Shown: in pieces, positions 3,178-54,854 of the stretch
How positions within the stretch are numbered: the first letter of the stretch is position 1
Layout: each line of letters begins with the position of its first letter
Assembly: GCA_035652335.1 (NCBI GenBank)
Contig: DASRDZ010000010.1
Location: forward strand, 39,594-103,593
DNA: 64,000 bases
DNA from: Candidatus Dormiibacterota bacterium
GTDB taxonomy: Bacteria; Chloroflexota; Dormibacteria; Aeolococcales; Aeolococcaceae
Direction: 5' to 3'
The notes under the pieces: generated by a model
Database searches by the model: none
What the model saw: only the letters and a program-made list of their open reading frames with translations
What the model was told of the DNA's origin: nothing
Program-made: the position numbers and the translations under genes

Positions 3178-6100
3178 TCAGTGATCGTAACGTAGGAGCC
3201 GGGGGCGGCCCAGCAGCCCGCTGACGCGCTGGTCCTCGGGACCGTAGATCGTCGGCACGCCACGCGCCACCAGCGGCGCCAGGGTGTTGGTCACCTCCAG
3301 CTCGATGAGGTTCTCGCCGGCACGCAGCGGGACCTCGATGCGCCAGGGGCGGCACCACAGCGCGCCGAGGTCCTCGCCGTTGACGCGCACGCCGGCGCTG
3401 CCGCGCACCTCGCCGAGGTCGAGCACCGCGTCCATGTCGCGCTCCACCCGCACCGTGGCGCGATGCAGGATGACGCCGGCGAAGGAGTCCAGGCCCTGGC
3501 GGTGCCAGGAGATGCCGGTGCGGATCACGCCGTCGCCGAGCGTCAGCACGGGGTGCTCGCGGAAGCAGGCGGCGCCGCGCCCGCCGGCCTGTGCCTGCAC
3601 GCGGATCGCCACGCGCGCACCGCCGCGCAGCGGCAGCACGCCGTCGTCGATCCGCACCTCCTCGCCGTCGAGCCAGGCCTGCACCTCGCCGTCGACCGGC
3701 AGCGTCATGCTGCGCGCGCCGGGCGGCGCCAGGAAGCAGAACCACGATGGCGGGGGCGGCTCCGGGGAGTCCGACCAGCGCTGCGGCACCAGCCCGCGCA
3801 CCACCTCCTCGCCCTCCAGCCAGGCGACGTCGGTGAGCGTGTGGCGGCGCTCGATCTGCTCGCGCGCTCCCCAGCCGGAGAGCGGGCTGCCCGCGCTGAG
3901 GCCGTAGGCGCCCACCCACGGTTCACCCGCGGCGCAGGTCTCCCAGCGCTCGTCGCTGCCGATCTCCAGCACCGCTCCCGAGCGCAGGCGCAGCCGCAGG
4001 CTGCAGCCGAAGCTCGGCGTGGTCATCGTCTCACCGGCGAAGGCCTCGACGACGTGCTCGCCCGCCTCCAGATGCGGCGGCACCTCGACGTGGTGCGTCG
4101 CCGCTGCGCTCGAGGACACCTCGACCTCGGCGGGCTCGCTCAGCGTGATGCGCCGCCGGAAGCGGCGCGCCTGCGGCGCGCCGCGATAGTCGGGGTGCAC
4201 CATCCGTCCGCCCCAGATGCCCACGGGCGCACGGCGGTAGGGCTCGCCGAAGCACCACGACAGCGCCGTCGGCGGCGGCTTGCTGTAGCCGCGATAGGCG
4301 AGATGCGGGGCGTGCCGCGGCACCACCTCGACGGCCACCTCGTGCCAGCCGGCGTCGAGGTGCACGGGGATGGCCAGCACGCCGTTGTCGAGCGGGCCGG
4401 CGAGATGCGTGCCGTCGAGCCACACCGTGATGACGGCGTCACCCTCGATGACGAGGTGCGTGTCGCAGGCCTGCGGCACGTGGCCGTAGGAGACCAGGCG
4501 TGCGCCGTCCTCGGGCAGCACCGCCTTCCACGTCTCCACCTTGCCGCGCACGCCGAAGAGCGTCTCCAGGCAGACGTCCTCGATGCCGTAGCGCTCCGAG
4601 TACTCGAAGGGGACGCCGTCGACGGTGGCCCGAGGGCCGTACGTCGACACCACCTCGCGCCAGCCGTCGCGCAGCATCCGCTCGCGCGGAGGGACGCGCC
4701 CGTTGTCGCCGCTCATGCGCTCCTCCATGCCCAGCGAACGCATGGGATGCTCGACGTCCTCGGGCACGACGGGAGCGCTGCGCCAGGCGGGATCGTCGCC
4801 CTCGCGCCAGGCGAAGGTGCGGCGCTCCACCGGCGGTGTGCCCGGGTTGGGCGGCAGGCGCAGGTCGCCCCAGCGGTTCTCGCCCCACTCGAGGTAGCGG
4901 CACTCCCACTCCACCGCCAGGGGGATCTCCTGCGACGGTGCCGGCGTGGCGACGCGCTGCGGCTCACCGGGCGGCAGCGCGACGATGGTGAAGGGGCCGT
5001 CGAGGCGCAGCAGCAGGTCGTCGCCGTCGAGCCGCGCGTCGAGGGGGTGCACGCTGCCGTCGCGGAACTCCCAGCGCTCGGCGCTCCGCGGGCCCACGCC
5101 GCGCACGCGCAGCTCGCCCTCGCCGGTGCAGAGCAGCAGGTCGAGGTCGCCGCAGCGCCGCCACTGCACGCGCACCTCCGCGCCGGCGGCGCGCGGCGGC
5201 GGCAGGGCGGCGGGCACCTCCGCGGGCGTGGCCACCACAGTCGCCAGCGAGCGCAATCTGGCCACGTGTGTCAGGAACTCGGCGTCGCCTGAGCCGTTCT
5301 CCGCCGACCAGTCCGGCAGCGGCTCGACGATCACCACGGGAACGCCTCGCTCCGCCCGCGCGATCAGGGCGTCGACCACCGGCAGCGGCAGGCAGCGGCA
5401 GGCCGGCAGCACCACGGGCAGGTCGGGCACCCGGTCCAGCCAGTCCTCGTTCACCGCCATGCGGTCGTGGCCGGCGTCGTGCAGGAGGCTGCGCGTCGCC
5501 CACTCGTCGGGCCGGTCCCAGCGCACCGAGCCGTGGTGCCCCATGAGCTGCACGTACACCTGGTTGGCGCGCTGCGCGCTCTCGCCCCACTCCATGTGCC
5601 CGAGCGTGTCGGCCCACACCGTCGAGAGCGGGTGGAGGACGGCCACCTCCGGGTGGTGCCGCCCCGCCGCCGCGGCCATCATCACCCGCGCCATGGCCTC
5701 GGCGAAGGGCGCGTAGTGCCGCGAGAAGGGCTGGCGCCAGAGCATCTCCGGCGAGGCCCACTCCCACCACATGCCGCGCGTCGCGTAGTAGCCACCGTGT
5801 GGCAGGAACAGCGACGCGCCCTCGCGCGCCCACTCGAAGAGCGCCTCCGCCTGGTGCGCCAGCGAGAGTCCCTGCCCCTGCGAGTGGAAGCCCTCCAGCC
5901 AGACGCGCGAGGCTCCGGTGAGCGTGGCCAGGGAGAGGTGGAAGCGGATGTCGCCCATCTGGTCACTGCCCGGCGCGTTGGCCCAGGCCATGGTCCGGAA
6001 GTGGTCGACGTAGGCGAGGGCGCCGATGATCGGCGTGCCCATCCGCGACATCTGGTCGTAGCCGGCCAGCAGGCCGCGCTCGCGCACCATGCGCGCGTAC

Positions 6101-6858
6101 GGCTCGGTGTAGGCGCGCTCGATGCGCTGCCTGGCCACGTCGCACACCTGCCAGCGCAGCGCCGGCATCCGCGGGTCGTCGGACGGCGCGAAGGGGACCG
6201 CGGGCGGGTCGAAGCCCTTGACGGCGCGGAACTCCTCGGCGAAGCCCGGCGCCCCGGTGCCGAAGCACCACATCTCGTCCTCGAAGAGCGCGACGACGGG
6301 ATCGCCGTCGAGGTCGCCGGTCGACTCCGCCAGCATGCGGTTGACCGCGCCGTCCCTCGCCAGCGTCGCGACGGCGCGCACGTTGCCGAAGTCGAAGCCG
6401 TAGGGAAGCACGGTCGGCCCCGGCGCCGTCATCTCGCCGCGGAAGTCGGGATGCTCGCGCAGCAGCGCGGACATGTCGCGCATGCCGCCCGCCTGGTAGG
6501 GGCTGCCGGTGACGACGCCGAGCCCCAGCTCGCGACAGCGAAGCAGGATGCGCCGGTAGAGCGCGGTGCGCTCGGGCGTGCCCACCGGCGGGTCGTCGCC
6601 GACCGAGCCGCCGGCAGGGCCGAAGGCTGCCAGCGAGGCCGTCGCCACACCGCCGCAGCCCATCTCGACCAGGCGGTCGAGCTGCCAGCGCAGCCGCTCC
6701 TCGTCGAGCTTCTCGCCGCTCCACCACCACGCCGGGATGGGGCGCCACCTGTTCTCCGGGTTGCCCGCGAAGGCGCTGCGCAGCTCGGCGGGATCCGCGA
6801 TCGCGCCGGTCCAATCCATGCGCACAGATGCCCTGGGGGCGGCGTCGTCGACGATCAT
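3178..6858 (-). CDS. Large multidomain glycoside hydrolase (1226 aa; family uncertain, GH106/GH2-like TIM-barrel plus C-terminal beta-sandwich)
   Basis: The real start is the ATG at 6858-6856 (MIVDDAAPRASVRMDWTG...), not the GTG at 7356; the N-terminal 166 codons of the track ORF are Arg-rich junk. This ATG overlaps the stop of the upstream PhyH gene (ATGA), indicating coupling. Motifs include WWWSGEKLDEERLRWQLDRLVEMGCGGV and a C-terminal ...GENLIELEVTNTLAPL tail typical of GH C-terminal beta-sandwich domains. Confidence 0.7.
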   Translation of the reverse strand: MIVDDAAPRASVRMDWTGAIADPAELRSAFAGNPENRWRPIPAWWWSGEKLDEERLRWQLDRLVEMGCGGVATASLAAFGPAGGSVGDDPPVGTPERTALYRRILLRCRELGLGVVTGSPYQAGGMRDMSALLREHPDFRGEMTAPGPTVLPYGFDFGNVRAVATLARDGAVNRMLAESTGDLDGDPVVALFEDEMWCFGTGAPGFAEEFRAVKGFDPPAVPFAPSDDPRMPALRWQVCDVARQRIERAYTEPYARMVRERGLLAGYDQMSRMGTPIIGALAYVDHFRTMAWANAPGSDQMGDIRFHLSLATLTGASRVWLEGFHSQGQGLSLAHQAEALFEWAREGASLFLPHGGYYATRGMWWEWASPEMLWRQPFSRHYAPFAEAMARVMMAAAAGRHHPEVAVLHPLSTVWADTLGHMEWGESAQRANQVYVQLMGHHGSVRWDRPDEWATRSLLHDAGHDRMAVNEDWLDRVPDLPVVLPACRCLPLPVVDALIARAERGVPVVIVEPLPDWSAENGSGDAEFLTHVARLRSLATVVATPAEVPAALPPPRAAGAEVRVQWRRCGDLDLLLCTGEGELRVRGVGPRSAERWEFRDGSVHPLDARLDGDDLLLRLDGPFTIVALPPGEPQRVATPAPSQEIPLAVEWECRYLEWGENRWGDLRLPPNPGTPPVERRTFAWREGDDPAWRSAPVVPEDVEHPMRSLGMEERMSGDNGRVPPRERMLRDGWREVVSTYGPRATVDGVPFEYSERYGIEDVCLETLFGVRGKVETWKAVLPEDGARLVSYGHVPQACDTHLVIEGDAVITVWLDGTHLAGPLDNGVLAIPVHLDAGWHEVAVEVVPRHAPHLAYRGYSKPPPTALSWCFGEPYRRAPVGIWGGRMVHPDYRGAPQARRFRRRITLSEPAEVEVSSSAAATHHVEVPPHLEAGEHVVEAFAGETMTTPSFGCSLRLRLRSGAVLEIGSDERWETCAAGEPWVGAYGLSAGSPLSGWGAREQIERRHTLTDVAWLEGEEVVRGLVPQRWSDSPEPPPPSWFCFLAPPGARSMTLPVDGEVQAWLDGEEVRIDDGVLPLRGGARVAIRVQAQAGGRGAACFREHPVLTLGDGVIRTGISWHRQGLDSFAGVILHRATVRVERDMDAVLDLGEVRGSAGVRVNGEDLGALWCRPWRIEVPLRAGENLIELEVTNTLAPLVARGVPTIYGPEDQRVSGLLGRPRLLRYDH

Positions 6859-7634
6859 CGGCAGCCGCGGAAGGGCATGTGGTCGCCGCTGCGGAAGCGC
6901 GGCGGCGTGGCGTACACGTTGCGGTGCGGCGTCCCGTCGCCGCGGAGCAGGTAGCAGATCGGCCAGGGTTGCTCGCCGCGGATGCGCGTGGTGGTGGGGA
7001 TGTAACGGATGGTCAGCCCGCAGCGGCGGCGCGTCGAGCGGTTCGCGCGCGAGCCGTGCACGATGCTCGGGTGGTGCACCGAGACCCCGCCTCGCGGCAC
7101 CACCACGTCGACGGCGGCGGACTCGTCGACGTCGAGCGCGATCTCGGAGCTGAGCAGGTTCTCGATCGCCGTGACCTCGCGCCGCTCGTGCACCGGCCAG
7201 TCGTGGCTGCCGGGGATGACGCGCAGGCAGCCGTTCTCCGGCAGCGAGTCGTCGACGGCGAGCCAGAGCGAGACCACCTCCATCGGCTCCAGCTGCGGCC
7301 AGTAGGCGGCGTCCTGGTGCCAGAGCACGGGCTGGCCGTCGCCGGGTGGCTTGCACACGTACTGCGAGGCGAAGAGCGCGATGCCGTCGCCGATGAACTG
7401 CGCGGCGACGTCGAGGAGGCGGTCGTCGCCGACCAGGCGCACCCAGAAGGGGTCGTCGGCGAGCAGGTCGACGCCAAGCGTCTCCGGGCGCCGCCCCGGG
7501 TTGCGCGCGGTGAGCCAGTCGACATGGGCGGCCACCTCGTCGATGAGCTCAACGTCGAGGACGTCGGGGAACACCGCGTAGCCCTGGCGGGCGTAGTGCT
7601 GCAGCGGCGACTCGGCGGTCGCGGCGGTGCTCAT
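6855..7634 (-). CDS. Phytanoyl-CoA dioxygenase (PhyH) family Fe(II)/2-oxoglutarate oxygenase, paralog 1
   Basis: 259 aa from the ATG at 7634 (MSTAATAESPLQHYARQGYAVFPDVL...). Carries the HxD...H facial triad context (LWHQDAAYW ... VSVHHPSIVHGSRAN). Its TGA stop (6857-6855) overlaps the ATG of the downstream GH. The track ORF 6855..8045 has an Arg/Gly/His-rich junk N-terminus. Confidence 0.75.
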   Translation of the reverse strand: MSTAATAESPLQHYARQGYAVFPDVLDVELIDEVAAHVDWLTARNPGRRPETLGVDLLADDPFWVRLVGDDRLLDVAAQFIGDGIALFASQYVCKPPGDGQPVLWHQDAAYWPQLEPMEVVSLWLAVDDSLPENGCLRVIPGSHDWPVHERREVTAIENLLSSEIALDVDESAAVDVVVPRGGVSVHHPSIVHGSRANRSTRRRCGLTIRYIPTTTRIRGEQPWPICYLLRGDGTPHRNVYATPPRFRSGDHMPFRGCR

Positions 7635-7648
7635 CGCCGGCGGCCCGG

Positions 7649-8557
7649 TCAGCGGCGGAGGGTCTGCACGAAGCGGCGCAGACGCGACGCTGCCGCCGCG
7701 CCCGCCGCCCCGCCGCTCGGCGCCGGGGGAGCCGGAGCAGGGATGAGGCTGCCGGCGAAGACGAGTGCGCCCAGCGCGGTGAGCAGGGTGCCGGGGAGCA
7801 GGCTGCGCAGCGGCAGCCCGGCGGCGACCGCCCGGATCGGCGTCCTGCGCAGCGGCGCCGCCCTCACCGGTGCTCGCGGCGCCGCCGGGACGACCGGTGC
7901 GGTCTCGACGGTGGGGATGGTGACCACGGCGGGCACCGGCGGCGGCGTGGGCACCAAGAGGTCGGCGGGCGGCAGTGGCGGCAGCACGGTGTTGCCGTCG
8001 TCGGTGGTGAGGATGGTGAGGATCGCCGAGGCCTGGCGGACGCACGGCGTGAGCTGGTCACCGGGATTGGGCAGCGGCACGGGCGGCGCGGCCGGCGGCG
8101 AGGGAGGAGTCACCGGAAGCGCAGGGATCGTGGCCACCGGCGACGTCAAAGGAGAGGGGCAGGCGGTTGCAGCGGGTGAGCCTGCGCCGATGTCCTGATA
8201 CACGGTGACCACCGCATCGCCCGGCGGGTCGTCCTGGGGGATCTCGAAGTTGCACTGCACCGTCCCGGTGTTGCTGGCGGAGCCGACCGCGCACTTCTGC
8301 GCCGGCGCGCCCGGCGCGCAGGCGGGTGCCGGGCAGACCGTCAGCGTGTACCCGACGGAGGGGGCGAACCCCTGCCCGGAGACGCTGATGGTGGCGCCGG
8401 GCAGGCCGCTGGCCGGCGCGACCTGGACGGCCGTCGAGGCCGTCGGCGGGGGCGGCTGGGTCGCGGCGGCCGGGTGCGCGTCGAGCAGCGAGAGCACGCC
8501 GGCCAGCGCCATGGCGGCGGCGACCGCCCTGGCGGCGCGACGGGGAGCTGTGCCCAT
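7649..8557 (-). CDS. Secreted proline-rich membrane-anchored protein (N-terminal signal peptide, C-terminal TM helix)
   Basis: Start trimmed to the ATG at 8557 (MGTAPRRAARAVAAAMALAGVLSLLDAHPAAA is a signal peptide). It has a Cys-containing domain, then long PPxP tracts (TPPSPPAAPPVPLPNPG..PTPPPVPAVV), and a C-terminal hydrophobic anchor (LLTALGALVFAGSLIP). It is the first gene of the operon PhyH1 - GH - SMP30. Confidence 0.55.
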   Translation of the reverse strand: MGTAPRRAARAVAAAMALAGVLSLLDAHPAAATQPPPPTASTAVQVAPASGLPGATISVSGQGFAPSVGYTLTVCPAPACAPGAPAQKCAVGSASNTGTVQCNFEIPQDDPPGDAVVTVYQDIGAGSPAATACPSPLTSPVATIPALPVTPPSPPAAPPVPLPNPGDQLTPCVRQASAILTILTTDDGNTVLPPLPPADLLVPTPPPVPAVVTIPTVETAPVVPAAPRAPVRAAPLRRTPIRAVAAGLPLRSLLPGTLLTALGALVFAGSLIPAPAPPAPSGGAAGAAAASRLRRFVQTLRR

Positions 8558-8599
8558 TCCCAACCAACCTCTTCTTCCCGCCCTCCGGGCGACCCTTCG

Positions 8600-8685
8600 G
8601 CGGCCCGGCGGCGACTCTAGCATTGACCACCTCGTATGATTAGGTAAAAATTCTAACAATGCAAGGTGGAGGAGGAAGGAAGGCC
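8600..8685. promoter_or_regulatory. AT-rich divergent promoter region between the Pro-rich/PhyH/GH operon (-) and the ABC transporter operon (+)
   Basis: TTGACCACCTCGTATGATTAGGTAAAAATTCTAACAATG lies in a roughly 72% GC genome. It contains TATGAT and TAAAAAT-like -10 candidates, and a strong RBS block GGAGGAGGAAGG follows. Confidence 0.4.
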
Positions 8686-9201
8686 GTGCCTGCGCGGTCC
8701 GCTGCCCGCGGCGCACGCCTGGCCGCGCTGGCCGGGGCGCTCGCCGCGGCCGTCACCCTGAGCGGCTGCGGCGTCCGGCTGCAGGCCAACCACCTGGTGG
8801 TGCGCATCGACGCCGCCGGCATGCACCTCGTCAGGGTCAACGGCAGCGCGGCCCGCGCCGGCACGGCCATCCCCTCGGGAGAAACCGTCATCGACGTCAT
8901 CAACGCCGACCCGCAGCTCGCCCACACGGTGAGCCTGGTGCAGGGCGTCGCCACGCCGGGCGCTCTCCCCGAGCGCGTGCGCGCCGCCCGCCTGGTCAGC
9001 GACGACCCCGACCAGATCCTCGACATGACCGACTCGCTCGACCGCGACCAGGTCAAGGTCAGCGCCAGCGGCGGCATCATCGACGACCCCCAGACTGCGC
9101 AGTTCCACGAGTACCTCGCGCCCGGCCAGGCCTACCTCATCGTCGACGTGGCCCACGCGAGCCGCGACTGGCTCGCCATCACCCCGAGCGGCGCCGCATG
9201 A
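8686..9201 (+). CDS. Small lipoprotein of unknown function (lipobox LSGC)
   Basis: GTG at 8686 sits 10 nt after GGAGGAGGAAGG (8668-8680). Signal plus lipobox: MPARSAARGARLAALAGALAAAVTLSGC. The stop TGA 9199-9201 overlaps the ATG of the next gene (ATGA). The ATG at 8659 chosen by the track lies inside the RBS. Confidence 0.6.
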   Translation: MPARSAARGARLAALAGALAAAVTLSGCGVRLQANHLVVRIDAAGMHLVRVNGSAARAGTAIPSGETVIDVINADPQLAHTVSLVQGVATPGALPERVRAARLVSDDPDQILDMTDSLDRDQVKVSASGGIIDDPQTAQFHEYLAPGQAYLIVDVAHASRDWLAITPSGAA

Positions 9202-11537
9202 ACGCTCCACGGACCGCCACGCCGCAGGGCGTCCGTCCCACCGGGACGGCGGCCGCGCTTGGGCTGCGCCTGCGGGCGAGCTGGCGAGCCATGGCGGCGG
9301 CGCTGGCGTCGGAGGCGCGCCTCTGGGCGCCCGCCGCGGTGTGGGCGCGGCTGCGCGCCCTGCCGCTGCGGCGGAGGGTCGCCATCGCCGGCTGGATCGG
9401 CCTGGTGGTTGCCGTCATGATCGCCGGCAACCTGCCCTTCGGCAGCGACCACGGCATCCTCCTGCCGCGCAAGATCCCGCTCGGACTGGTGCTCCAGGGC
9501 GTGATCTTCGGTGCGGTGTACTCGCTGGTGGCCATCGGGCTGGTGCTGGTCTACCGCGCCGGCCGCTACATCAACTTCGCCCAGGGCGGCGCCGGCGCGG
9601 TGGGCGTGGTGCTCACCGCCAAGCTCATCCAGATCACCGGGATGAACTTCTTCCTCGCCGCGATCGTCGGCGTGGCGGCAGCCGGGCTGCTGGCGATGCT
9701 GGTGGAGGTGCTGGTCTTCCAGGGCCTGCGCATCTTCAGCTCGCCGCGCCTGGTCGCCACCGTGGCCACCCTCGGCGTGATGCAGCTCTTCGGCTTCGTC
9801 GAGTACATGGTGCGCGGCATCGAGGCGGACCACTACTACAACCTGCTGCCCATTCCCAAGGCGCCGCTCAACCTCTCGTTCAGCATCGGCATCGTCGACT
9901 TCAACGGCGCCCACGTCCTGGTGCTGCTGGTGGTGCCGGTGGTGGTGCTGGCGCTGACGCTGTTCCTGCGCCTCACCGACTTCGGCGCCGCCATCCAGGC
10001 CGCCGCTGAGAATGCGGACCGCGCCCGGCTGGTGGGCATCACGGTGCGCCGCATGCACACCTACGTGTGGGCGATCGCGGGCGTGCTCAGCGGGCTCACC
10101 GCCATCCTCGCCGCGCCCTTCTTCAACTTCTCCAACGGCGTCAGCTCAGGACCGTCGCTCTTCCTGCTCGCCCTGGCACCCGCGGTGCTGGGTGGCATGA
10201 ACAGCCTGGCGCAGACCTTCTTCGCCTCCCTCGGGCTCGGCGTGATGGAGTCCGTGGTGGGCTGGAACTACAACGTGGCGACGCTGGAGATGGTGCTCCT
10301 CGGCGTGCTGCTCGTCGGCCTGCTGCTGCGCCGCCGGTTGACCAGCCGCACCACCGAGGGCGAGGAGCGCTCCTTCGCGGTGGCCTCGCGGGTGCGCCAG
10401 TTCCCACGCGAGCTGGCCAGGTTGCCGCTGGTGCGCGCCTGGCGCGGGGGCTTCCGCGCTCTGCTGCTCGGGATGGCCGTCCTGCTGCCGCTCGGCTTCG
10501 ACCTGCAGCACCAGGTGGAGGCCGAGAACGTCCTCGTGTTCATCATCGCCGGCGTCTCGCTGGTCCTGCTCACCGGCTTCTCGGGGCAGATCTCCTTCGG
10601 GCAGTTCGGCATCGTCGGCTTCGGTGCGCTCTTCGGCGGCTGGCTGCTCACCAACGCGGGCCTCGACTACTGGACCTCGATGCTCGTCGTCACCGTCGCG
10701 GGCGGCATGGTGGCGGCGGTCATCGGCATCCCCGCACTGCGCATCCGCGGCCTCTTCCTCGGGGCGGTGACGCTCGCCTTCGCGCTCGCCTGCACCGACT
10801 ACTTCTTCTCCGACAGCGGCCACTTCCCCATCTTCACGCCGAGCGGGCCCGTGCACCGTCCCAGCCTGCCCTTCGGCTGGGACCTGGGCACCCAGCTCGA
10901 CAAGGCGGGCGACGAGCTGCACCTCTACTGGTTCTGCCTCGGCGTGCTGGTGCTGGTGATGCTGATGGTCCGCGCGCTGCGCAACAGCCGCTGGGGGCGC
11001 GCCTTCCAGGCGGTGCGCGACAACGAGCGCGCCGCCAACGCCTACGGCGTGGGCTCGATGCAGACCAAGCTGCTCGCCTTCGCCGCCTCGGGGATGATCG
11101 CCGCGCTGGCCGGCTACCTCTACATCACCGTGCAGCAGCAGGTGGCCCCGACGTCGTTCCCGGTGACCACCTCGCTGGTGCTCTTCAGCGCGGTCGTCAT
11201 CGGCGGGCTCGGCTCGCTCTCCGGCGCGGTCATCGGCGGCCTCTTCTTCGAGGGCGTGCAGTACTTCATCAAGGTGGACGCCATCCAGCTGCTGACCACG
11301 AGCCTCGGCTTGCTGGTGGTGCTGGCGTTCTTCCCGGGAGGGCTGGGCTCGCTGTTCTTCAACGTGCGCGACGCGCTGCTCCGCCGCTACGCGCTGCGCC
11401 GCCGCATCGTGGTGCCGTCGCTGCTCGCCGACCGTCGGGTCGAGGACGGCACGGCGCCGGATGCCGAGGCTGCGCTGGTGGGCAACGCGGTCACCGCCGC
11501 AGCACCGGTCGGCGTCGGCGTGGGAGGAGGACAGTGA
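9198..11537 (+). CDS. Fused LivH-LivM branched-chain-amino-acid-type ABC transporter permease (two permease domains, 779 aa)
   Basis: The first half carries a LivH-like signature (LVAIGLVLVYRAGRYINFAQGGAGAVG) and the second half a LivM-like one (LLTGFSGQISFGQFGIVGFGALFGGWLL). The ATG overlaps the upstream stop; the stop TGA 11535-11537 overlaps the GTG of the next gene. Confidence 0.85.
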   Translation: MNAPRTATPQGVRPTGTAAALGLRLRASWRAMAAALASEARLWAPAAVWARLRALPLRRRVAIAGWIGLVVAVMIAGNLPFGSDHGILLPRKIPLGLVLQGVIFGAVYSLVAIGLVLVYRAGRYINFAQGGAGAVGVVLTAKLIQITGMNFFLAAIVGVAAAGLLAMLVEVLVFQGLRIFSSPRLVATVATLGVMQLFGFVEYMVRGIEADHYYNLLPIPKAPLNLSFSIGIVDFNGAHVLVLLVVPVVVLALTLFLRLTDFGAAIQAAAENADRARLVGITVRRMHTYVWAIAGVLSGLTAILAAPFFNFSNGVSSGPSLFLLALAPAVLGGMNSLAQTFFASLGLGVMESVVGWNYNVATLEMVLLGVLLVGLLLRRRLTSRTTEGEERSFAVASRVRQFPRELARLPLVRAWRGGFRALLLGMAVLLPLGFDLQHQVEAENVLVFIIAGVSLVLLTGFSGQISFGQFGIVGFGALFGGWLLTNAGLDYWTSMLVVTVAGGMVAAVIGIPALRIRGLFLGAVTLAFALACTDYFFSDSGHFPIFTPSGPVHRPSLPFGWDLGTQLDKAGDELHLYWFCLGVLVLVMLMVRALRNSRWGRAFQAVRDNERAANAYGVGSMQTKLLAFAASGMIAALAGYLYITVQQQVAPTSFPVTTSLVLFSAVVIGGLGSLSGAVIGGLFFEGVQYFIKVDAIQLLTTSLGLLVVLAFFPGGLGSLFFNVRDALLRRYALRRRIVVPSLLADRRVEDGTAPDAEAALVGNAVTAAAPVGVGVGGGQ

Positions 11538-13573
11538 AGCTCCGCATCGCCATGCCCAAGCGGCGCCGCACGCGCGTCCTGCTCGCCGGCGCCCCGCTGT
11601 ACCCGATCATCGCGCTGGCCCTGGTCAGCGCCCTCGACCAGCTCGACCTCGCCGTCTTCGGCGTCGTCTTCCCGGAGATGAAGGCCGACCTGCACTTCTC
11701 GCTGCAGGACGTCTTCTGGATCGGCTTCCCGGCGTCGCTGCTCGGCTGGTGCGGCATCTTCGTGATCGGCGCCCTCGGTGACCGACTCCGCCGGGTGACG
11801 CTGTCCTGGATCCTGGCGGCCGTCTTCGGGCTCAGCTCGTTCCTCACCGGAGCGGTGATCAGCTGGCCGCAGCTGGTCCTGCTGCGCACCTTCAGCGTGC
11901 TGCCCAACTCCTACACGTCGCTGCACCACAGCCTGATCGCCGACATCTACCCTCCCGAGGGTCGCGGCTTCGCGATGGGCCTGTGGACCGCGCTGCGACC
12001 CGCCGGCTTCGTCGCCGGCAGCCTGCTCGCCGGCGTGCTGGCGGCGGTGGCCAACTGGCGGCTGGCCTTCCTGGCGCTGTCCATCCCCGTCATCGCCGCG
12101 GTGGCGATGCTGTTCCGGGTGCGGGAACCCGCGCGCGGCGCGCAGGAGTTCGAGGCCTCCACCGCCGCATTCGCCAGCCAGGTTCACCTCGGCCCCATCC
12201 AGAGCGTCAAGCTGCTGCTCAACATCCGGTCGTACCGGCGGCTGATGTGGGCATACGGCGTGATCGGCATGGGCGTGGGATCGCTGGTCCCCCTCTCCGC
12301 CTTCGTGTACCAGGGCGTGTTCGGCGTGGGACCGTTCGGACGGGGCCTCATCAACGCCGTCACGCAGCTCATGGTCTTCCTCAGCAGCGTGGCGGCGGGA
12401 GCCCTGCTGCAGCGCTTCTCGCCGCGCTTCATCACCCTCGCCAACGGCCTCCTCGTCTCGGCGGCCGGGCTCTCCTACCTGTTCCTCGCCCTCGCGCCGA
12501 CCGCGGGACTCGCCGTCGCGTCGCAGCTCATCGGCAGCGCCGCCTTCGGCATCTTCTCGGTCGGCACCTTCCTGCAGGTGGCGGCGACGACTCCGGCCAA
12601 CATCCGGACCATGGCCTTCGCCGCGGCGGGCATCTTCATGATCCTCGGCAACCTCTGGGGTCCGATCGCCCTGGGCATCGGCGCCAGCCAGGGCTACCGG
12701 GTGGCCCTGCTCGCCTCCTTCTGGTGGTACATCGTCGGCGGCCTGGTGGTCGCCGACGGCGCACGGTTCGTGAAGCGTGACCAGGAGCGCGCCAACACGG
12801 TGCTGCGGGCCGAGGCGGAGGCGCGCCGCCGCCGCGCCGCCGGCGAGAAGCTCGCCCTGCTCGACGTGCGCCACCTCGACGTGGCCTACGGCAACGTGCA
12901 GGTGCTCTTCGACGTCTCGATGCAGGTCACCGAGGGCGAGATCGTCGCCCTGCTGGGCACCAACGGCGCCGGCAAGTCGACGCTGCTGCGCACCGTCTCC
13001 GGCTTGATCCGTCCCACCGAGGGCGTGGTGCTCTTCGAGGGCTCGGACATCACCGGCCTCGACGCGGAGCTGATCACCAAGCGCGGCGTCATCCACGTGC
13101 CCGGTGGGCGCGGCGTGTTCCCCGGGCTCACGGTGCGCCGCAACCTGCGGCTCGGCACCTACCTCTACCGCTCCGACCCGCTCTTCCGCGAGGAGCGCAT
13201 GGAGTACGCCCTGTCCTTCTTCCCGCGGCTCGGCGAGCGGCTCGACCAGGCCGCAGGCAGCCTGAGCGGTGGCGAGCAGCAGATGCTCAACCTGGCCCAG
13301 GCGATGATGGTGCAGCCACGCCTCCTGCTCATCGACGAGCTGTCGCTGGGCCTGGCGCCGCGCATCGTGGAGGAGATCCTCCAGGTCGTCGAGAGCATCG
13401 CCGCCAGCGGCGTCACCATCGTGCTCGTCGAGCAGTCGGTGAACATCGCGCTCAGTCTCGCCTCGCGCGCCTACTTCATGGAGAAGGGCGAGGTGCGCTT
13501 CGAGGGCCGCAGCGCCGACCTCGCCGACCGCGACGACCTGGTCCGCTCCGTGTTCCTGGCGGGGGCGCGCTGA
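11534..13573 (+). CDS. Chimeric protein: N-terminal 12-TM MFS-type transporter domain (about 415 aa) fused to a C-terminal LivF-like ABC ATP-binding domain (about 255 aa)
   Basis: GTG at 11534 lies 6 nt after GGAGGAGGA and overlaps the upstream TGA. The MFS motif A is present (GALGDRLRRV) across many TM segments. The C-terminus has Walker A (LLGTNGAGKST), the ABC signature (LSGGEQQ) and Walker B (LLLIDELSLGL). The track ORF 10067..13573 upstream of 11534 is an Arg-rich artefact overlapping the permease. Confidence 0.8.
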   Translation: MKLRIAMPKRRRTRVLLAGAPLYPIIALALVSALDQLDLAVFGVVFPEMKADLHFSLQDVFWIGFPASLLGWCGIFVIGALGDRLRRVTLSWILAAVFGLSSFLTGAVISWPQLVLLRTFSVLPNSYTSLHHSLIADIYPPEGRGFAMGLWTALRPAGFVAGSLLAGVLAAVANWRLAFLALSIPVIAAVAMLFRVREPARGAQEFEASTAAFASQVHLGPIQSVKLLLNIRSYRRLMWAYGVIGMGVGSLVPLSAFVYQGVFGVGPFGRGLINAVTQLMVFLSSVAAGALLQRFSPRFITLANGLLVSAAGLSYLFLALAPTAGLAVASQLIGSAAFGIFSVGTFLQVAATTPANIRTMAFAAAGIFMILGNLWGPIALGIGASQGYRVALLASFWWYIVGGLVVADGARFVKRDQERANTVLRAEAEARRRRAAGEKLALLDVRHLDVAYGNVQVLFDVSMQVTEGEIVALLGTNGAGKSTLLRTVSGLIRPTEGVVLFEGSDITGLDAELITKRGVIHVPGGRGVFPGLTVRRNLRLGTYLYRSDPLFREERMEYALSFFPRLGERLDQAAGSLSGGEQQMLNLAQAMMVQPRLLLIDELSLGLAPRIVEEILQVVESIAASGVTIVLVEQSVNIALSLASRAYFMEKGEVRFEGRSADLADRDDLVRSVFLAGAR

Positions 13574-14415
13574 TGGCCAGGCCGGTCGCGCTCGAGATCC
13601 GCGACGTGCTGGTGCAGTTCGGCGGCGTGCGCGCGGTCGACGTCGAGCACATGGCCATCAGGCGCGGGCGCATCGCCGGCCTGATCGGGCAGAACGGCGC
13701 CGGCAAGACCACCCTCTTCGACGTCATCAGCGGCTTCGTGCCGCAGCGCCGCGGCTCGGTCGTCCTCGACGGCGAGCACGAGCTGACCGGCCTCTCGCCG
13801 GTGCAGCGCGCCCACCTCGGCCTGGGACGCAGCTTCCAGGCCGCCACCCTCTTCGAGTCGCTGACCGTCGCCGAGTCGCTGATGGTCGCCTTCCACACGC
13901 GCATGGAGAGCAGCGGTCCGCTGTCGTCGGCGCTGCAGCTTCCCTGGGCGCGGCGCGAGGAGCGCGCGGTGCGGGTGCGCGTCGACGAGCTGATCGACCT
14001 GATGGGCCTGGGCGCGTTCCACGACAAGTTCATCAGCGAGCTGTCCACCGGGACGCGGCGCATCGTCGACCTGGCCGGCGTGCTCGCCCTGCAGCCCAGC
14101 GTGCTGCTGCTCGACGAGCCGTCGAGCGGCATCGCCCAGCGCGAGGTGGAGCAGCTCGGCGCGCTGCTCCGCGAGGTGCGCGAGGCGCTCGACTGCACCA
14201 TGGTGGTGGTCGAGCACGACATCCCCCTGGTGCGCACGCTCTGCGACGAGCTGTATGCGATGGAGACCGGGCGCGTCATCGCCCACGGCACCTGCGACGA
14301 GGTGCTGTCCGACGACAAGGTTGTGGAGTCCTACCTGGGCGGCGGCAGCCGCGCGGTGGAACGGAGCGGCGCCGCCACGGCGCCGGTCCCGGTTGCGATG
14401 GGAGGAACGCTGTGA
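13573..14415 (+). CDS. LivG-like ABC transporter ATP-binding protein
   Basis: Walker A (GLIGQNGAGKTTLF), signature (LSTGTRR) and Walker B (LLLDEPSSG). The ATG shares one nucleotide with the upstream TGA (TGATG). Confidence 0.85.
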   Translation: MARPVALEIRDVLVQFGGVRAVDVEHMAIRRGRIAGLIGQNGAGKTTLFDVISGFVPQRRGSVVLDGEHELTGLSPVQRAHLGLGRSFQAATLFESLTVAESLMVAFHTRMESSGPLSSALQLPWARREERAVRVRVDELIDLMGLGAFHDKFISELSTGTRRIVDLAGVLALQPSVLLLDEPSSGIAQREVEQLGALLREVREALDCTMVVVEHDIPLVRTLCDELYAMETGRVIAHGTCDEVLSDDKVVESYLGGGSRAVERSGAATAPVPVAMGGTL

Positions 14416-14975
14416 GCAGCACGACGATCAGCCGCGTCTCGAACCTGGGACGCGGTGTCAGCGCACTGGGACCGAAGCTGAAGCGCTTCGGCTCGCGGGC
14501 CGCGTCCGCGTCGGGGACGTGGCGGCGCTACGCCACCCCGCTCGGCCTCGCCGCCGTGGCCGGCGGCTTCGTCCTGCTCATCGAGAGCTGGTGGGACGGC
14601 AGCGGAACGCCGGACGCACGCGTCGAGCTCCAGGACGTCATCTCGGCGATCGGCGCGGGCGCGCTGGTCATCGCCGGCATGCTGCTCATCGTCGGCGAGC
14701 TCTTCATGTCGATGCGGCGCAGCGGCGAGCGGCAGTCGGAGCGGATGATCGCCGCGCTGCAGCAGATCGCCGCCGGCACCGCCGCGCAGCAGGAGACGGG
14801 CGGCGCCGCGGCAGTCAGCCCGTCGTCGGTGGTTCTGGCCAGCCATGCCTCATACCACACGCCCACCTGTGACCTCGTCCTGGGACGCGAGGGGGTCACC
14901 GTGACCACGCTGAGCGAGGCACACGCCAAGGGGTTGACCCCCTGCCGCGCCTGCCTCGGTGGAGGAGACCGCTGA
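14412..14975 (+). CDS. Small two-TM membrane protein with a C-terminal Ada-type zinc-binding domain (YH-x3-C ... A-x2-G-x2-PC-x2-C)
   Basis: GTG at 14412 is 6 nt after GGAGG and overlaps the upstream stop (GTGA). Two hydrophobic helices (LGLAAVAGGFVLLIESWW and AIGAGALVIAGMLLIVGELFM) are followed by SYHTPTCDLVLGREGVTVTTLSEAHAKGLTPCRACLGG, which matches the Ada_Zn_binding consensus (YHrpdC...eeAeaaGyrPCkvC). Confidence 0.6.
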   Translation: MSSTTISRVSNLGRGVSALGPKLKRFGSRAASASGTWRRYATPLGLAAVAGGFVLLIESWWDGSGTPDARVELQDVISAIGAGALVIAGMLLIVGELFMSMRRSGERQSERMIAALQQIAAGTAAQQETGGAAAVSPSSVVLASHASYHTPTCDLVLGREGVTVTTLSEAHAKGLTPCRACLGGGDR

Positions 14976-16750
14976 TGCACAGCACGCGCCGAGCCCGTCA
15001 CGTCCGTCTGCTGGTGATGCTGGGGCTGGCGGGGATCCTGGCCGGCTGCTCGCGCACACCTCCGGGCGGGATCATCGCGGGCGGCGGTCTTGGTGGCGCA
15101 GCGGGGGCGGCGGACGCGCAGACGCAGACGAGCGCGGACTCCTCGGCGACGGCCGGCAGCGGTGCGGGTGCGGGCGCGGGCGCCGCGGGCGTCAACGGCG
15201 CAGTGGCCGGCGCGGCGGGCGCGGCCGGTGCCACGGGCGGCTCCGCGGTCGCGGCGGCGGCCGCCTCCGGCCCCACGGGTGAGAAGCCGATCGCGTCGTG
15301 GCCCGGTGTGACGCCGACCACCATCGACATCGCCATCGCCGCCAAGCTGCACAACTGCAGCGAGTCGAACAACCCGCAGGAGTCGAGCGCCGGCACCTGG
15401 ACGCAGAAGTACGCCGACCTGGTCTCCGCCTACGTCGACTACGTCAACAAGTACATCCCCCTCCCCGGCGGCCGGAAGCTGAAGCTGGTCGGCAACGACA
15501 ACACCTTCGGCATCCCGCTCGTCGACGACGGCGGCCAGTTCTGCCCGACGCAGCAGGCTGCCGCCGGCCGCTACGTGGTCAACTCGCTCAAGCCCTTCGC
15601 CGCCCTGTACTCGCAGCCGACGCCCTCGGGCCCGGTGTTCGACGAGACCGTGGCCAACGGGCACGTCCTCGACATCGGCCAGGGCTGGCCGACGGTGCAG
15701 TCGATGACCAGCCGCTGGCCCTACGCCATCGGGGTGGCGGTGGTCGGCGAGCCGCTCGACCAGCACATGGGCTACCTCGCCGACTACGTGCACAAGCGCC
15801 TGCAGAGCACGCAGTACACGCCGCCGGCCGGGCCGTCGCAGCCGCGCAGCTACGGCGCGATGATCTACGACGACCCGTTCTACAACGGGCTGGCCAGCGA
15901 GACGCAGCAGCTCTTCGGACAGTTCGGCATCAGCGTCAAGATCTACCGGATCAGCAGCAACACCGCCACCGCCGCGCAGCAGGCCAACCAGGTGGCCCTG
16001 CAGATGAAGCAGGACGGGGTGAACACGATGATCTGGGGAGTGGTCGGCCAGCCCGGCATCGTCATGGCCAACGCCTTCGACTCCGAGGCCTACTACCCGG
16101 ACAACCTGCAGGCCTACAGCGGCGTCGCCTTCTGGGACACCGACTACTCGCACACGCAGTGGTCCCGCGCCTTCGGCATCGGCACCCCGTCGATCATCGC
16201 CGAGCGCAACGACACCACCCACTACACCACCGCCTTCGAGGGTGGTGACGCCTACGACGAGGTGTGGGCCAAGTCGACCCAGTACGACGGCAACACCGCG
16301 CAGAACGGTGCCGACGGCTACGGCATCTGGAACAACCTGATGACCCTGACGGCGGGCCTCGAGCGCTCGCCGGTCAACTTCACACCGACCTCGTTCGCCG
16401 ACGGGCTGGACTCCTCGGCGACGCAGTACCGCTGCGTCGAGGAGCGCTTCTGGGGAACCGACCACCCGCAGCTCTTCCGGGTGGCCTGGTACAAGGACAA
16501 CCCCGCAGGCGCAGAGGGGTACACGACCCTCTACTGGGTCAACAAGCAGTCGTCGTTCGGCACCCCGGGCTACTACGAGTCGTACGACGGGTACTACACC
16601 TACTTCGGGCTCAACGACCTGCCCAACTCACCCTCCGACGACACGGCCAACCAGTCGGTGCCGCCCATCAAGCAGATCCCGCACATCGGCGTCGACCCCT
16701 TCAAGTCGTGCCCCAGCATCGGGCTGCAGGGTGGCCTCTACGAGCACTGA
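14975..16750 (+). CDS. Large lipoprotein, putative divergent periplasmic-binding-protein-like substrate-binding component (591 aa)
   Basis: ATG at 14975 overlaps the upstream TGA. Lipobox LAGC, then a roughly 90-aa Gly/Ala/Ser-rich linker (GAGAGAGAAG...), then a roughly 480-aa globular domain. Position and lipidation suggest it is the operon's binding protein; its length and sequence are atypical for LivK. Confidence 0.6.
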   Translation: MHSTRRARHVRLLVMLGLAGILAGCSRTPPGGIIAGGGLGGAAGAADAQTQTSADSSATAGSGAGAGAGAAGVNGAVAGAAGAAGATGGSAVAAAAASGPTGEKPIASWPGVTPTTIDIAIAAKLHNCSESNNPQESSAGTWTQKYADLVSAYVDYVNKYIPLPGGRKLKLVGNDNTFGIPLVDDGGQFCPTQQAAAGRYVVNSLKPFAALYSQPTPSGPVFDETVANGHVLDIGQGWPTVQSMTSRWPYAIGVAVVGEPLDQHMGYLADYVHKRLQSTQYTPPAGPSQPRSYGAMIYDDPFYNGLASETQQLFGQFGISVKIYRISSNTATAAQQANQVALQMKQDGVNTMIWGVVGQPGIVMANAFDSEAYYPDNLQAYSGVAFWDTDYSHTQWSRAFGIGTPSIIAERNDTTHYTTAFEGGDAYDEVWAKSTQYDGNTAQNGADGYGIWNNLMTLTAGLERSPVNFTPTSFADGLDSSATQYRCVEERFWGTDHPQLFRVAWYKDNPAGAEGYTTLYWVNKQSSFGTPGYYESYDGYYTYFGLNDLPNSPSDDTANQSVPPIKQIPHIGVDPFKSCPSIGLQGGLYEH

Positions 16751-16760
16751 GCGATGCGGC

Positions 16761-16786
16761 GCGGTCCCGTCCCAGGGCGGGACCGC
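16761..16786. terminator. Bidirectional hairpin terminator between convergent substrate-binding-protein and PhyH2 genes
   Basis: GCGGTCCCG-tcccaggg-CGGGACCGC: a 9-bp perfect stem starting 11 nt after the substrate-binding-protein stop and ending 4 nt before the PhyH2 stop. It is a U-tract-less (I-shaped) terminator of the kind common in high-GC actinobacteria. Confidence 0.45.
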
Positions 16787-16789
16787 TTC

Positions 16790-17584
16790 TCACCGCGCCA
16801 GGCTGAAGGTCTCGGTGAAGAAGGCGCGCGTGACCTCGTTCTCGAAGTGGCCGTGCAGCGTGGCGCGGTGGATGGTGGGGATGTAATGCCCGAGGTGCAG
16901 CGCCGAGTCGCGGTACACGGCCACGTCGCCCGCGGACAGCGCGACCATCCGCGCGCCAGGCATGGAGCGGCGGTAGCGCGAGGCGGCGACCACGTACTCC
17001 TCCTCGCTCACCCCGTCGCGGCTGGGCGGCCCGGCGGCGAGGACCCGCGCCTCCTCGGGGGTGTCGTCGCGCACGTGGCTGCCGGGGACGACCCACAGCG
17101 ACATGTCGTCGTAGAGGGCGGCGTTGAACTGGTTGAAGAAGCGGAGGTCGGGGACCAGGGTGCGCCAGCGCTCCACGTCGGCCTGGGGGACGTTGTCCCG
17201 GTAGTCGCGGTGCCAGCGCTGGCACCACGACCCGGTGCTGCGCTGGAAGAGGACCGTGAAGGCCTCGGCGTCGAGGGCGAAGTCGGTGCCGAGCAGGCGG
17301 TCGACGACGCGGCGCAGGCGGGGCAGCTCGGCGAGCGCCGCGAAGGGCGCGGTGTCGATGCGCTCGCCGTAGTCGAGCAGCACCCTGCCGCCCACCGTGC
17401 CACCCGGCGGGCGCGTCGCGTCGGGGCCCAGCGTGGACCGCGTGTGGGCGCGAAGCACCTCGACCTGCTCGCGCATCCGCGCCAGCAGCGGCCCGGGGAT
17501 GGCGTCGGTGACGACGGTGAGGCCGTCCCGCGCGTATTCCTCGGCGTGGCGGTCGAGCTCGGCGGCCTGCATGGCTGCTCGCAT
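16790..17584 (-). CDS. PhyH-family Fe(II)/2OG dioxygenase, paralog 2
   Basis: 264 aa with clean non-repetitive sequence (WHRDYRDN ... VVPGSHVRDD ... ALHLGHYIP). Convergent with the substrate-binding-protein gene, with a hairpin between them. Confidence 0.8.
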   Translation of the reverse strand: MRAAMQAAELDRHAEEYARDGLTVVTDAIPGPLLARMREQVEVLRAHTRSTLGPDATRPPGGTVGGRVLLDYGERIDTAPFAALAELPRLRRVVDRLLGTDFALDAEAFTVLFQRSTGSWCQRWHRDYRDNVPQADVERWRTLVPDLRFFNQFNAALYDDMSLWVVPGSHVRDDTPEEARVLAAGPPSRDGVSEEEYVVAASRYRRSMPGARMVALSAGDVAVYRDSALHLGHYIPTIHRATLHGHFENEVTRAFFTETFSLAR

Positions 17585-53513: not shown

Positions 53514-53600
53514 CGGAGCGAGAGGGATTCGAACCCCCGAGGGCTTGTCGGCCCTTGTGGTTTTCAAGACCACTCCGATCAACCACTCCGGCATCGCTCC
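53514..53600 (-). tRNA. tRNA-Ser (anticodon TGA), class II with long variable arm
   Basis: Minus-strand read: GGAGCGA-TG-CCGGAGTGGTTGATCGG-A-GTGGT-CTTGAAA-ACCAC-A-AGGGCCGACAAGCCCTC-GGGGGTTCGAATCCCTC-TCGCTCC-G. A 7-bp acceptor, the GTTCGAATC T-loop, anticodon loop CT-TGA-AA and a long variable arm identify it as Ser. CCA is not encoded. Confidence 0.85.
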
Positions 53601-54759: not shown

Positions 54760-54854
54760 GGGGAGGTGGCTGAGTGGCCGAAAGCGCCCGCCTGCTAAGC
54801 GGGTGAGGGGTATTAAACGCTCCTCCGAGGGTTCGAATCCCTCCCTTCCCGCCA
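54760..54854 (+). tRNA. tRNA-Ser (anticodon GCT), class II, CCA encoded
   Basis: GGGGAGG-TG-GCTGAGTGGCCGAAAGCGC-CCGCC-TGCTAAG-GCGGG-(long variable arm)-CGAGGGTTCGAATCCCTC-CCTTCCC-G-CCA. The acceptor has 6 Watson-Crick pairs plus one G-T. A TATACT -10 hexamer lies at 54741-54746, 13 nt upstream. Confidence 0.85.

Follow-up and report, generated by a model that had tools for sequence, protein, structure and literature searches.

A family of two-helix membrane proteins with a C-terminal ADA_N-like zinc-finger domain encoded beside Liv-type ABC importers

What might a small membrane protein that ends in an Ada-type zinc finger contribute to a transporter operon? We studied this question with the gene at 14412-14975 (+) in a 64,000-nucleotide stretch of DNA from a Candidatus Dormiibacterota bacterium (contig DASRDZ010000010.1, positions 39,594 to 103,593), here called the window. 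The gene has a GTG start and a TGA stop and encodes a protein of 187 amino acids, the translation of which ends ...SYHTPTCDLVLGREGVTVTTLSEAHAKGLTPCRACLGGGDR. An original prediction, made from the letters and open reading frames (ORFs) of the window, had described a protein with two transmembrane (TM) helices and a finger that fits the Ada_Zn_binding consensus, and had offered as possible roles a metal- or alkylation-responsive regulator of transport or a docking module for the ATPases of an ATP-binding cassette (ABC) importer. The ORF, its translation and the C-terminal 40 residues agreed with what had been quoted there. We found a genuine, though remote, homology between the tail and the zinc domain at the N terminus of Ada (N-Ada), which places the tail within the group named 'ADA_N-like', and a strong association of the genes of its family with Liv-type importers.

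The ORF at 14412-14975 is a real gene, as indicated by its third-position G+C content (GC3), the third-position bias of its divergence, and the presence of conserved homologues. In a window with a G+C content of 73%, GC3 reaches 0.91 in this frame but 0.67 and 0.59 in the two alternative frames. Comparison with two orthologues of 87% identity showed 35 and 43 differences at third positions and 13-18 at positions 1 and 2. The GTG start is supported by the N-terminal residues S2-S3-T4-T5-I6, which do not vary among four close homologues, and a Shine-Dalgarno-like GGGAGGA could be read at 14400-14406 (+), 5 nt 5' of that start. The start codon (14412-14414) overlaps the TGA stop of livG (14413-14415) as GTGA at 14412-14415, while the last base of the stop codon (14973-14975) is also the first of the ATG that begins the next gene (14975), as TGATG, and this next gene is preceded by GGAGGAG at 14961-14967. 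In the window the gene is thus translationally coupled on both sides, as had been proposed. No second copy of the family was found within the window.

Searches with Pfam and NCBIfam on the full window protein gave nothing useful, and a phmmer search of the full protein against the PDB returned only kainate receptor matches, which fell in the TM region and were rejected as spurious. A word-indexed search with the 53-residue tail, a query too short for the method, found no homologues. When 1.84 billion representatives were searched exhaustively with a profile, we obtained 185 representative relatives at E<=1e-3, most of them 140-200 amino acids long and aligned to query positions ~38-181. Nearly all have two hydrophobic helices followed by [YF]-H-x-P-x-C...G-L-x-P-C-R-x-C near the C terminus. 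All named sources of the relatives were Actinomycetota, and the names that the relatives carry are all 'hypothetical protein' or 'uncharacterized membrane protein'.

Among 66 diverse C-terminal domains of the family, only His149, Cys153, Cys178 and Cys181 are invariant, and among 89 full-length relatives only these four residues and Gly52. Since the four predicted ligands are the sole invariant columns in the 66 domains, the H/C/C/C motif is not a chance occurrence, and the alignment of the ligands that the original prediction had suggested as a check came out in its favor. In most family members the domain ends 2-12 residues before the C terminus. The His-Cys3 site is predicted to bind zinc.

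The fit to Ada_Zn_binding was supported in part. The full protein had no match to PF02805 at E<=10, and the isolated 48-residue tail scored 13.9 bits (E=0.054) against a gathering threshold of 23 bits, with its match in the part of the model that binds the metal (profile positions 27-62 of 65); formal membership in PF02805 was therefore rejected. The window domain also had no match to PF19746 (DUF6233; gathering threshold 27.6 bits) at E<=1. When the 66 family domains were scanned singly, 38 weakly matched PF02805, and 50 had sub-threshold matches to DUF6233 at profile positions ~14-59 (best E=6.8e-5). One relative, which has nine repeats of the domain, exceeded the cut-offs of both Pfam models, with 65.9 bits for DUF6233.

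The profile comparisons carried the assignment further. When a profile of the 66 domains was searched against all PDB sequences, the top four matches were N-Ada structures (1adn/1eyf, 1u8b, 1zgw and 1wpk; E=0.001-0.007). Alignment of the same profile by hhalign with residues 1-92 of an E. coli Ada sequence that agrees with the PDB-match alignment at residues 56-77 gave a probability of 95.1% (E=3.4e-8, 46 columns) and placed H149/C153/C178/C181 in register with Ada C38/C42/C69/C72. This probability is comparable to the HHpred values of 82-98% in the ECOD study of the ADA_N-like group (PMC12353581). An AlphaFold2 (AF2) model of the domain, built from the 66-sequence alignment, had a pLDDT of 88.3 and a strand-strand-strand-helix fold. 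Foldseek comparison of this model with the predicted viral structures in BFVD gave best matches with Ada-type annotations ('Metal binding domain of Ada', 'DNA methyl phosphotriester repair domain' and 'Ada-like Zn-binding domain') at a probability of ~1.0, TM-scores of 0.7-0.83 and root mean square deviations of 1.4-2.9 A. The E-values were weak (4e-3 at best), as expected at 50 residues.

The same H-x3-C...C-x2-C module was also seen elsewhere (P0073, P0134, P0055, P0109, P0122, P0129, P0098 and P0126). Its variant layouts include nine tandem copies in a 745-residue protein, a pair of copies behind a hydrophobic segment at the N terminus in Lys-rich proteins of 130-140 residues, and two copies in proteins of 460-680 residues. 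P0134 (233 residues) has three copies of a looser related motif and no PF02805 or DUF6233 match at E<=0.01. The occurrence of the His/Cys3 module in several architectures implies that the module is mobile.

We then placed the domain on the protein, all of whose features lie on the + strand. The N-terminal tail (residues 1-40; 14412-14531) contains eight Lys/Arg and no Asp/Glu by charge count and is predicted to be cytoplasmic. Hydropathy and column conservation put TM helix 1, with the family-invariant Gly52 and a conserved Trp60, at residues ~41-60 (14532-14591), and the presence of two hydrophobic helices, as had been predicted, was evident. A short acidic loop (residues 61-76; 14592-14639), predicted from charge count to be extracytoplasmic, follows; residues 58-76 contain one Lys/Arg and five Asp/Glu. 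TM helix 2 (residues ~77-99; 14640-14708), located by hydropathy and alignment, is rich in small residues. In the 89-member alignment it has the motif Q72-x-P-Y-L-I-S78-G-G-x-x-G82-L-A-L-V-x-x-G89, of which the window clade carries the variant QMQDLIS/ELQDVIS; position 72 is Gln in 83 of the 89 relatives and Glu in the window protein. These glycine and small residues suggest tight helix packing. The segment after TM2 (residues 100-139; 14709-14828), predicted to be cytoplasmic, begins with an Arg-rich stretch and continues as a predicted helix, an extension of TM2 to residue ~129, and then as an Ala/Gly/Ser-rich linker, and its length varies across the full-length alignment. The ADA_N-like domain, with its predicted zinc site, occupies residues 140-183 (14829-14960) as delimited by invariant columns, hhalign, PDB profile matches, AF2 and BFVD, and the invariant columns give the predicted ligand codons: His149 at 14856-14858, Cys153 at 14868-14870, Cys178 at 14943-14945 and Cys181 at 14952-14954.

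The finger is predicted to be cytoplasmic from the basic N-terminal tail, the acidic loop and the Arg-rich segment after TM2. In 89 of 89 members the positive-inside bias favors cytoplasmic N and C termini, and the mean Lys+Arg counts of the family are 2.9 for the N-terminal flank, 0.85 for the loop and 2.9 for the segment behind TM2; the loop averages 16.6 residues. This placement of both termini is a prediction from charge bias. A cytoplasmic location should also suit a thiolate zinc site. The topology check proposed with the original prediction thus points to a cytoplasmic finger.

The operon in the window is of the HAAT/Liv type, with a BPD_transp_2 permease and ATPases of the LivG type (BCA_ABC_TP_C) and the LivF type, and close relatives among metagenome-assembled genomes (MAGs) retain the same operon. 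Among distant homologues (~23-55% identity by best local alignment), the family gene lies in or beside a BPD_transp_2 + LivG + LivF cluster on 11 of 11 contigs, although on one of these, L011, the transporter genes look fragmented and are ~1.5-3 kb away. Three arrangements were seen. The gene may be immediately upstream of a fused livHM gene (Nitriliruptorales, Streptomyces and Kitasatospora); it may be at the operon end after livF, usually behind a secreted protein with no Pfam match whose gene overlaps the start of the family gene; or it may be convergent, tail to tail with livF. Peripla_BP_6 genes are present in related loci, where the neighbors are amino-acid-type importers and acyl-CoA metabolism genes, not metal or redox genes.

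When species-representative genomes, one for each species, were scanned with the back-translated motif, we obtained 33 loci, every one in Actinomycetota, and examined them as 8-kb blocks. Liv ATPase or permease genes were present in 23 of the 33 blocks and lay within 300 nt of the family gene in 18; nine of the ten blocks that had no Liv genes contained <1.5 kb of sequence on one side. Liv-type systems are a minor part of an actinobacterial genome, a few percent, and judged from this share the Liv adjacency would be far beyond chance. The co-occurrence with LivG/LivF that the original prediction had suggested looking for is thus kept well beyond the window operon.

These results led us to propose that Liv/HAAT-type ABC importers include the protein with two TM helices and a finger as an accessory or regulatory component, a proposal whose chances we put at about even. 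The protein would be a small hairpin in the membrane in which TM2 is followed by a helical stalk, a flexible linker and a zinc module of ~45 residues. Its glycine-rich TM2 would pack against the LivH/M permease, and the tethered module would serve as a structural knob for protein interaction at the level of the ATPases, where it might contact LivG/LivF or another cytosolic partner and modulate assembly or ATPase activity. We infer both that the protein associates physically with the transporter and how it would dock or regulate. Of the ideas in the original prediction, docking to the ATPases appears to be the most plausible. The specific docking target commands less of our confidence than the accessory or regulatory role itself. 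MetN, ModC and MalK are ABC-importer ATPases that carry C-terminal regulatory domains with known ligands. By analogy, the family would supply a cytoplasmic module that acts at the nucleotide-binding domains and modulates the ATPase; unlike those domains, which are fused to the ATPase and have unrelated folds, the module is carried by a separate protein with two TM helices, and no ligand is known for it.

Several observations weigh against this proposal and against the fold assignment from which it starts. Foldseek comparison of the domain model with solved PDB structures gave nothing significant, so that the fold assignment is built on profile alignments and predicted viral models with weak E-values. 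A full-length AF2 model from a shallow five-sequence alignment, in which the helix that continues TM2 spans residues 72-129, had a pLDDT of 50, which leaves the stalk geometry uncertain. In many loci the family gene is convergent with livF and not co-transcribed with it, and this frequent convergence speaks against a strictly stoichiometric subunit and more for a functional link of a looser kind. Liv genes are also missing from the surroundings of the family gene in one well-flanked block, L018. In the main clade, the coupled partner is the secreted protein with no Pfam match, which is not present in the window, and the true partner might be this protein rather than the ATPases.

The last point opens another explanation, in which the family serves extracytoplasmic proteins as an anchor, assembly factor or signal relay for an adjacent secreted or surface protein and is linked to the transporter only through that neighbor, a 591-residue lipoprotein in the window and a protein of 430-545 residues elsewhere. 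Six of the 11 loci have a signal-peptide protein with no Pfam match overlapping the start of the family gene, and the window gene is coupled to the downstream lipoprotein. However, the secreted partner family is unrelated to either window lipoprotein, neither the convergent L005 and L006 loci nor the Streptomyces loci contain the secreted protein, the loop outside the membrane is very short, and the Liv transporter is the only constant neighbor. We therefore consider this explanation unlikely. The same low standing applies to a metal or redox sensor, in which occupancy or oxidation of a labile His-Cys3 site would report cytosolic zinc or thiol redox state and gate the importer. His-Cys3 sites can be redox-labile, as in the ZAS anti-sigma factors, and here the ligands are strictly invariant and the domain is predicted to be cytoplasmic. 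The zf-HC2/ZAS motif itself (PF13490) was rejected, however, since the spacing is H-x3-C-x24-C-x2-C rather than H-x3-C-x2-C and no PF13490 match was found. Nor are the neighbors in related loci those expected of such a sensor, and a purely structural site would be the simplest reading by analogy with N-Ada, which makes the sensor improbable in our view.

Homology to N-Ada also raises the possibility of an Ada-like alkylation sensor, in which a zinc-thiolate would accept a methyl group from a methylphosphotriester or another donor and switch the transporter or its expression. Sensing of alkylated DNA by ADA_N-like domains is raised as a speculation by the authors of the ECOD study (PMC12353581), and three cysteine thiolates are left in the family, including the equivalent of Cys69, the acceptor in the older literature that the same study cites. 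But the accepted methyl acceptor of N-Ada is Cys38 (PMC6818145), which an invariant His replaces here, and the domain is neutral (net charge 0; family mean +0.5 +/- 3) whereas the Ada segment has a charge of +6, so that binding of the DNA backbone is unlikely. The domain is moreover tethered to the membrane beside an importer, and the Pfam scan found no HTH_AraC or methyltransferase domain. The His at the Cys38 position and the neutral charge led us to reject an Ada-type methyl acceptor; an Ada-style alkylation switch on DNA is unlikely, and the alkylation-responsive role raised by the original prediction is to be regarded as very improbable. In another explanation, the protein is a nucleic-acid-binding regulator, tethered to the membrane, that governs how strongly the adjacent ABC operon is expressed. 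The Ada version of the domain contacts DNA, an ADA_N-like domain is also found on ribosomal protein L4 (PMC12353581), and the separate convergent transcription units in many loci would be compatible. Yet the protein has no recognizable DNA-binding domain, its zinc domain is neutral, its extracytoplasmic part is a loop of ~16 residues and thus no sensor domain, and regulators are usually divergent from their target operon rather than convergent with it or embedded in it. We give this regulator little credence, and an accessory or regulatory component of the importer is the reading that we retain.

The family can be compared with N-Ada10 (PF02805; 1adn, 1eyf, 1u8b, 1zgw and 1wpk), to which it is remotely homologous over ~46 residues with the ligands in register. 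Both share the motifs aromatic-[C/H]-x-P-x-C and A-x3-G-[LF]-x-P-C-x-x-C. They differ in the first ligand, which gives a His-Cys3 site in the family and a Cys4 site in Ada, and nothing in the family corresponds to the ~28 residues with which N-Ada begins, ahead of the FVFAV strand. The family domain is neutral, C-terminal and membrane-tethered where that of Ada is basic, and the window protein lacks the HTH_AraC domain, the O6-methylguanine methyltransferase domain or any other Pfam domain.

A further likeness is to the ADA_N-like X-group of Pei et al. 2025 (PMC12353581), which comprises C-terminal domains of ArfC, Cwp27, ComEC and RplD, with functions unknown, and which already includes C-terminal copies on membrane proteins. 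As in the ECOD examples (Mycobacterium tuberculosis ArfC, Clostridioides difficile Cwp27/ComEC and Cutibacterium RplD), the module here is small, C-terminal and Ada-like; the hosts are Gram-positive or actinobacterial, among them the membrane protein ArfC, and the homology is detectable only by profile or structure comparison. Unlike ArfC and RplD, which have degenerate sites (ArfC being compared by its description), the family has an intact and invariant His-Cys3 site, and it is set apart from the ECOD examples by two TM helices, the second of which bears a conserved motif. The Liv-type ABC neighborhood is a feature of the family and is not described in PMC12353581. The family is also like PF19746, a stand-alone domain of unknown function, through the weak matches of 50 of its 66 domains, the window protein itself being unmatched; a literature search found no paper mentioning DUF6233.

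In the literature and databases searched we found no description of the scaffold with two TM helices and the TM2 motif, together with the intact His-Cys3 site and the Liv neighborhood. The domain class is known (PF02805, DUF6233 and ECOD ADA_N-like), and the family would be a new form of it. ADA_N-like fingers have recently been recognized on many Gram-positive proteins, none of which outside Ada has a known role, and the family provides a concrete context for them: an intact His-Cys3 site, a predicted cytoplasmic location, and a conserved Liv pairing that spans Frankiaceae, Mycobacteriales, Acidimicrobiia, Nitriliruptorales, Streptomyces and Kitasatospora. Should the partners be in physical contact, the actinobacterial Liv-type importers would gain a subunit or regulator that has so far gone unannotated, and a new family model would be warranted for the proteins now labeled 'hypothetical'. 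A bolder version, an extra importer component throughout Actinomycetota whose zinc module binds the LivG/LivF dimer and gates transport on a cytosolic cue, is tentative and in our judgment rather doubtful. It would be the first assigned function for any ADA_N-like domain outside Ada.

The remaining genes of the window operon, all on the + strand, were assigned as follows. The apparent first gene (8659-9201) encodes a putative lipoprotein of 180 residues that has no significant Pfam match and is kept in the MAG relatives L001 and L002. It is followed by a fused LivH/LivM-type permease of 779 residues (9198-11537; PF02653, E=1e-60), an MFS_1 domain fused to a LivF-like ABC ATPase in a protein of 679 residues (11534-13573), and a LivG-like ABC ATPase of 280 residues (13573-14415; PF00005 and PF12399, BCA_ABC_TP_C). 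In the product of 11534-13573, PF07690 matches residues 28-377 (E=5e-36) and ABC_tran matches residues 459-602. Such a fusion of a secondary transporter with an ABC ATPase is unusual; it is kept at 87% identity in L001 and L002 and is thus not an assembly artifact.

The gene that follows the family gene (14975-16750, from the ORF list) encodes the 591-residue lipoprotein, with the lipobox LAGC and a long Ala/Gly-rich linker. No Pfam, NCBIfam or PDB sequence match was found for it, and hhalign against an alignment of Liv-type binding proteins gave only a partial match (92%, 62 columns). By these sequence comparisons the lipoprotein may be a highly divergent substrate-binding protein. In the closest relatives, an extra gene for 834 residues with no significant Pfam match comes directly after the gene for a 593-residue lipoprotein (L001 10846-13350, L002 9457-11961 and L003 3052-5556). 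The window does not have this gene (~16750-16790); there, the lipoprotein gene is followed 40 bp on by a convergent PhyH-like gene.

The secreted partner of the main clade was found at L007 5543-6988, L010 5412-7004, L012 1164-2777, L046 5605-7008, L047 5370-7004 and L048 5706-7004. These proteins have a signal peptide and a C-terminal hydrophobic segment followed by arginines, and the six copies align mutually; no relationship was found between them and the two window lipoproteins. In the Streptomyces loci L008 and L009, the family gene precedes a triple fusion of the LivH/M permease with a LivG ATPase (893-955 residues). The flanks of these two loci contain genes for an Mtb12_C-domain protein, a Peripla_BP_6 binding protein, a WYL/PafC-type regulator and two Rpf-like transglycosylase/LysM proteins, and the neighborhood is conserved between the two strains.

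Upstream of the window operon, an ORF at 7649-8716 (-) is divergent from it, and relatives have a gene for 301 residues with no Pfam match at the same divergent position. Further upstream lies a very long ORF of 1456 codons at 3178-7548 (-), which is coding-like with a GC3 of 0.88. An Rfam search of the window found no riboswitch before the transporter operon; its sole matches were two tRNA genes, at 53514-53600 (-) and 54760-54851 (+).

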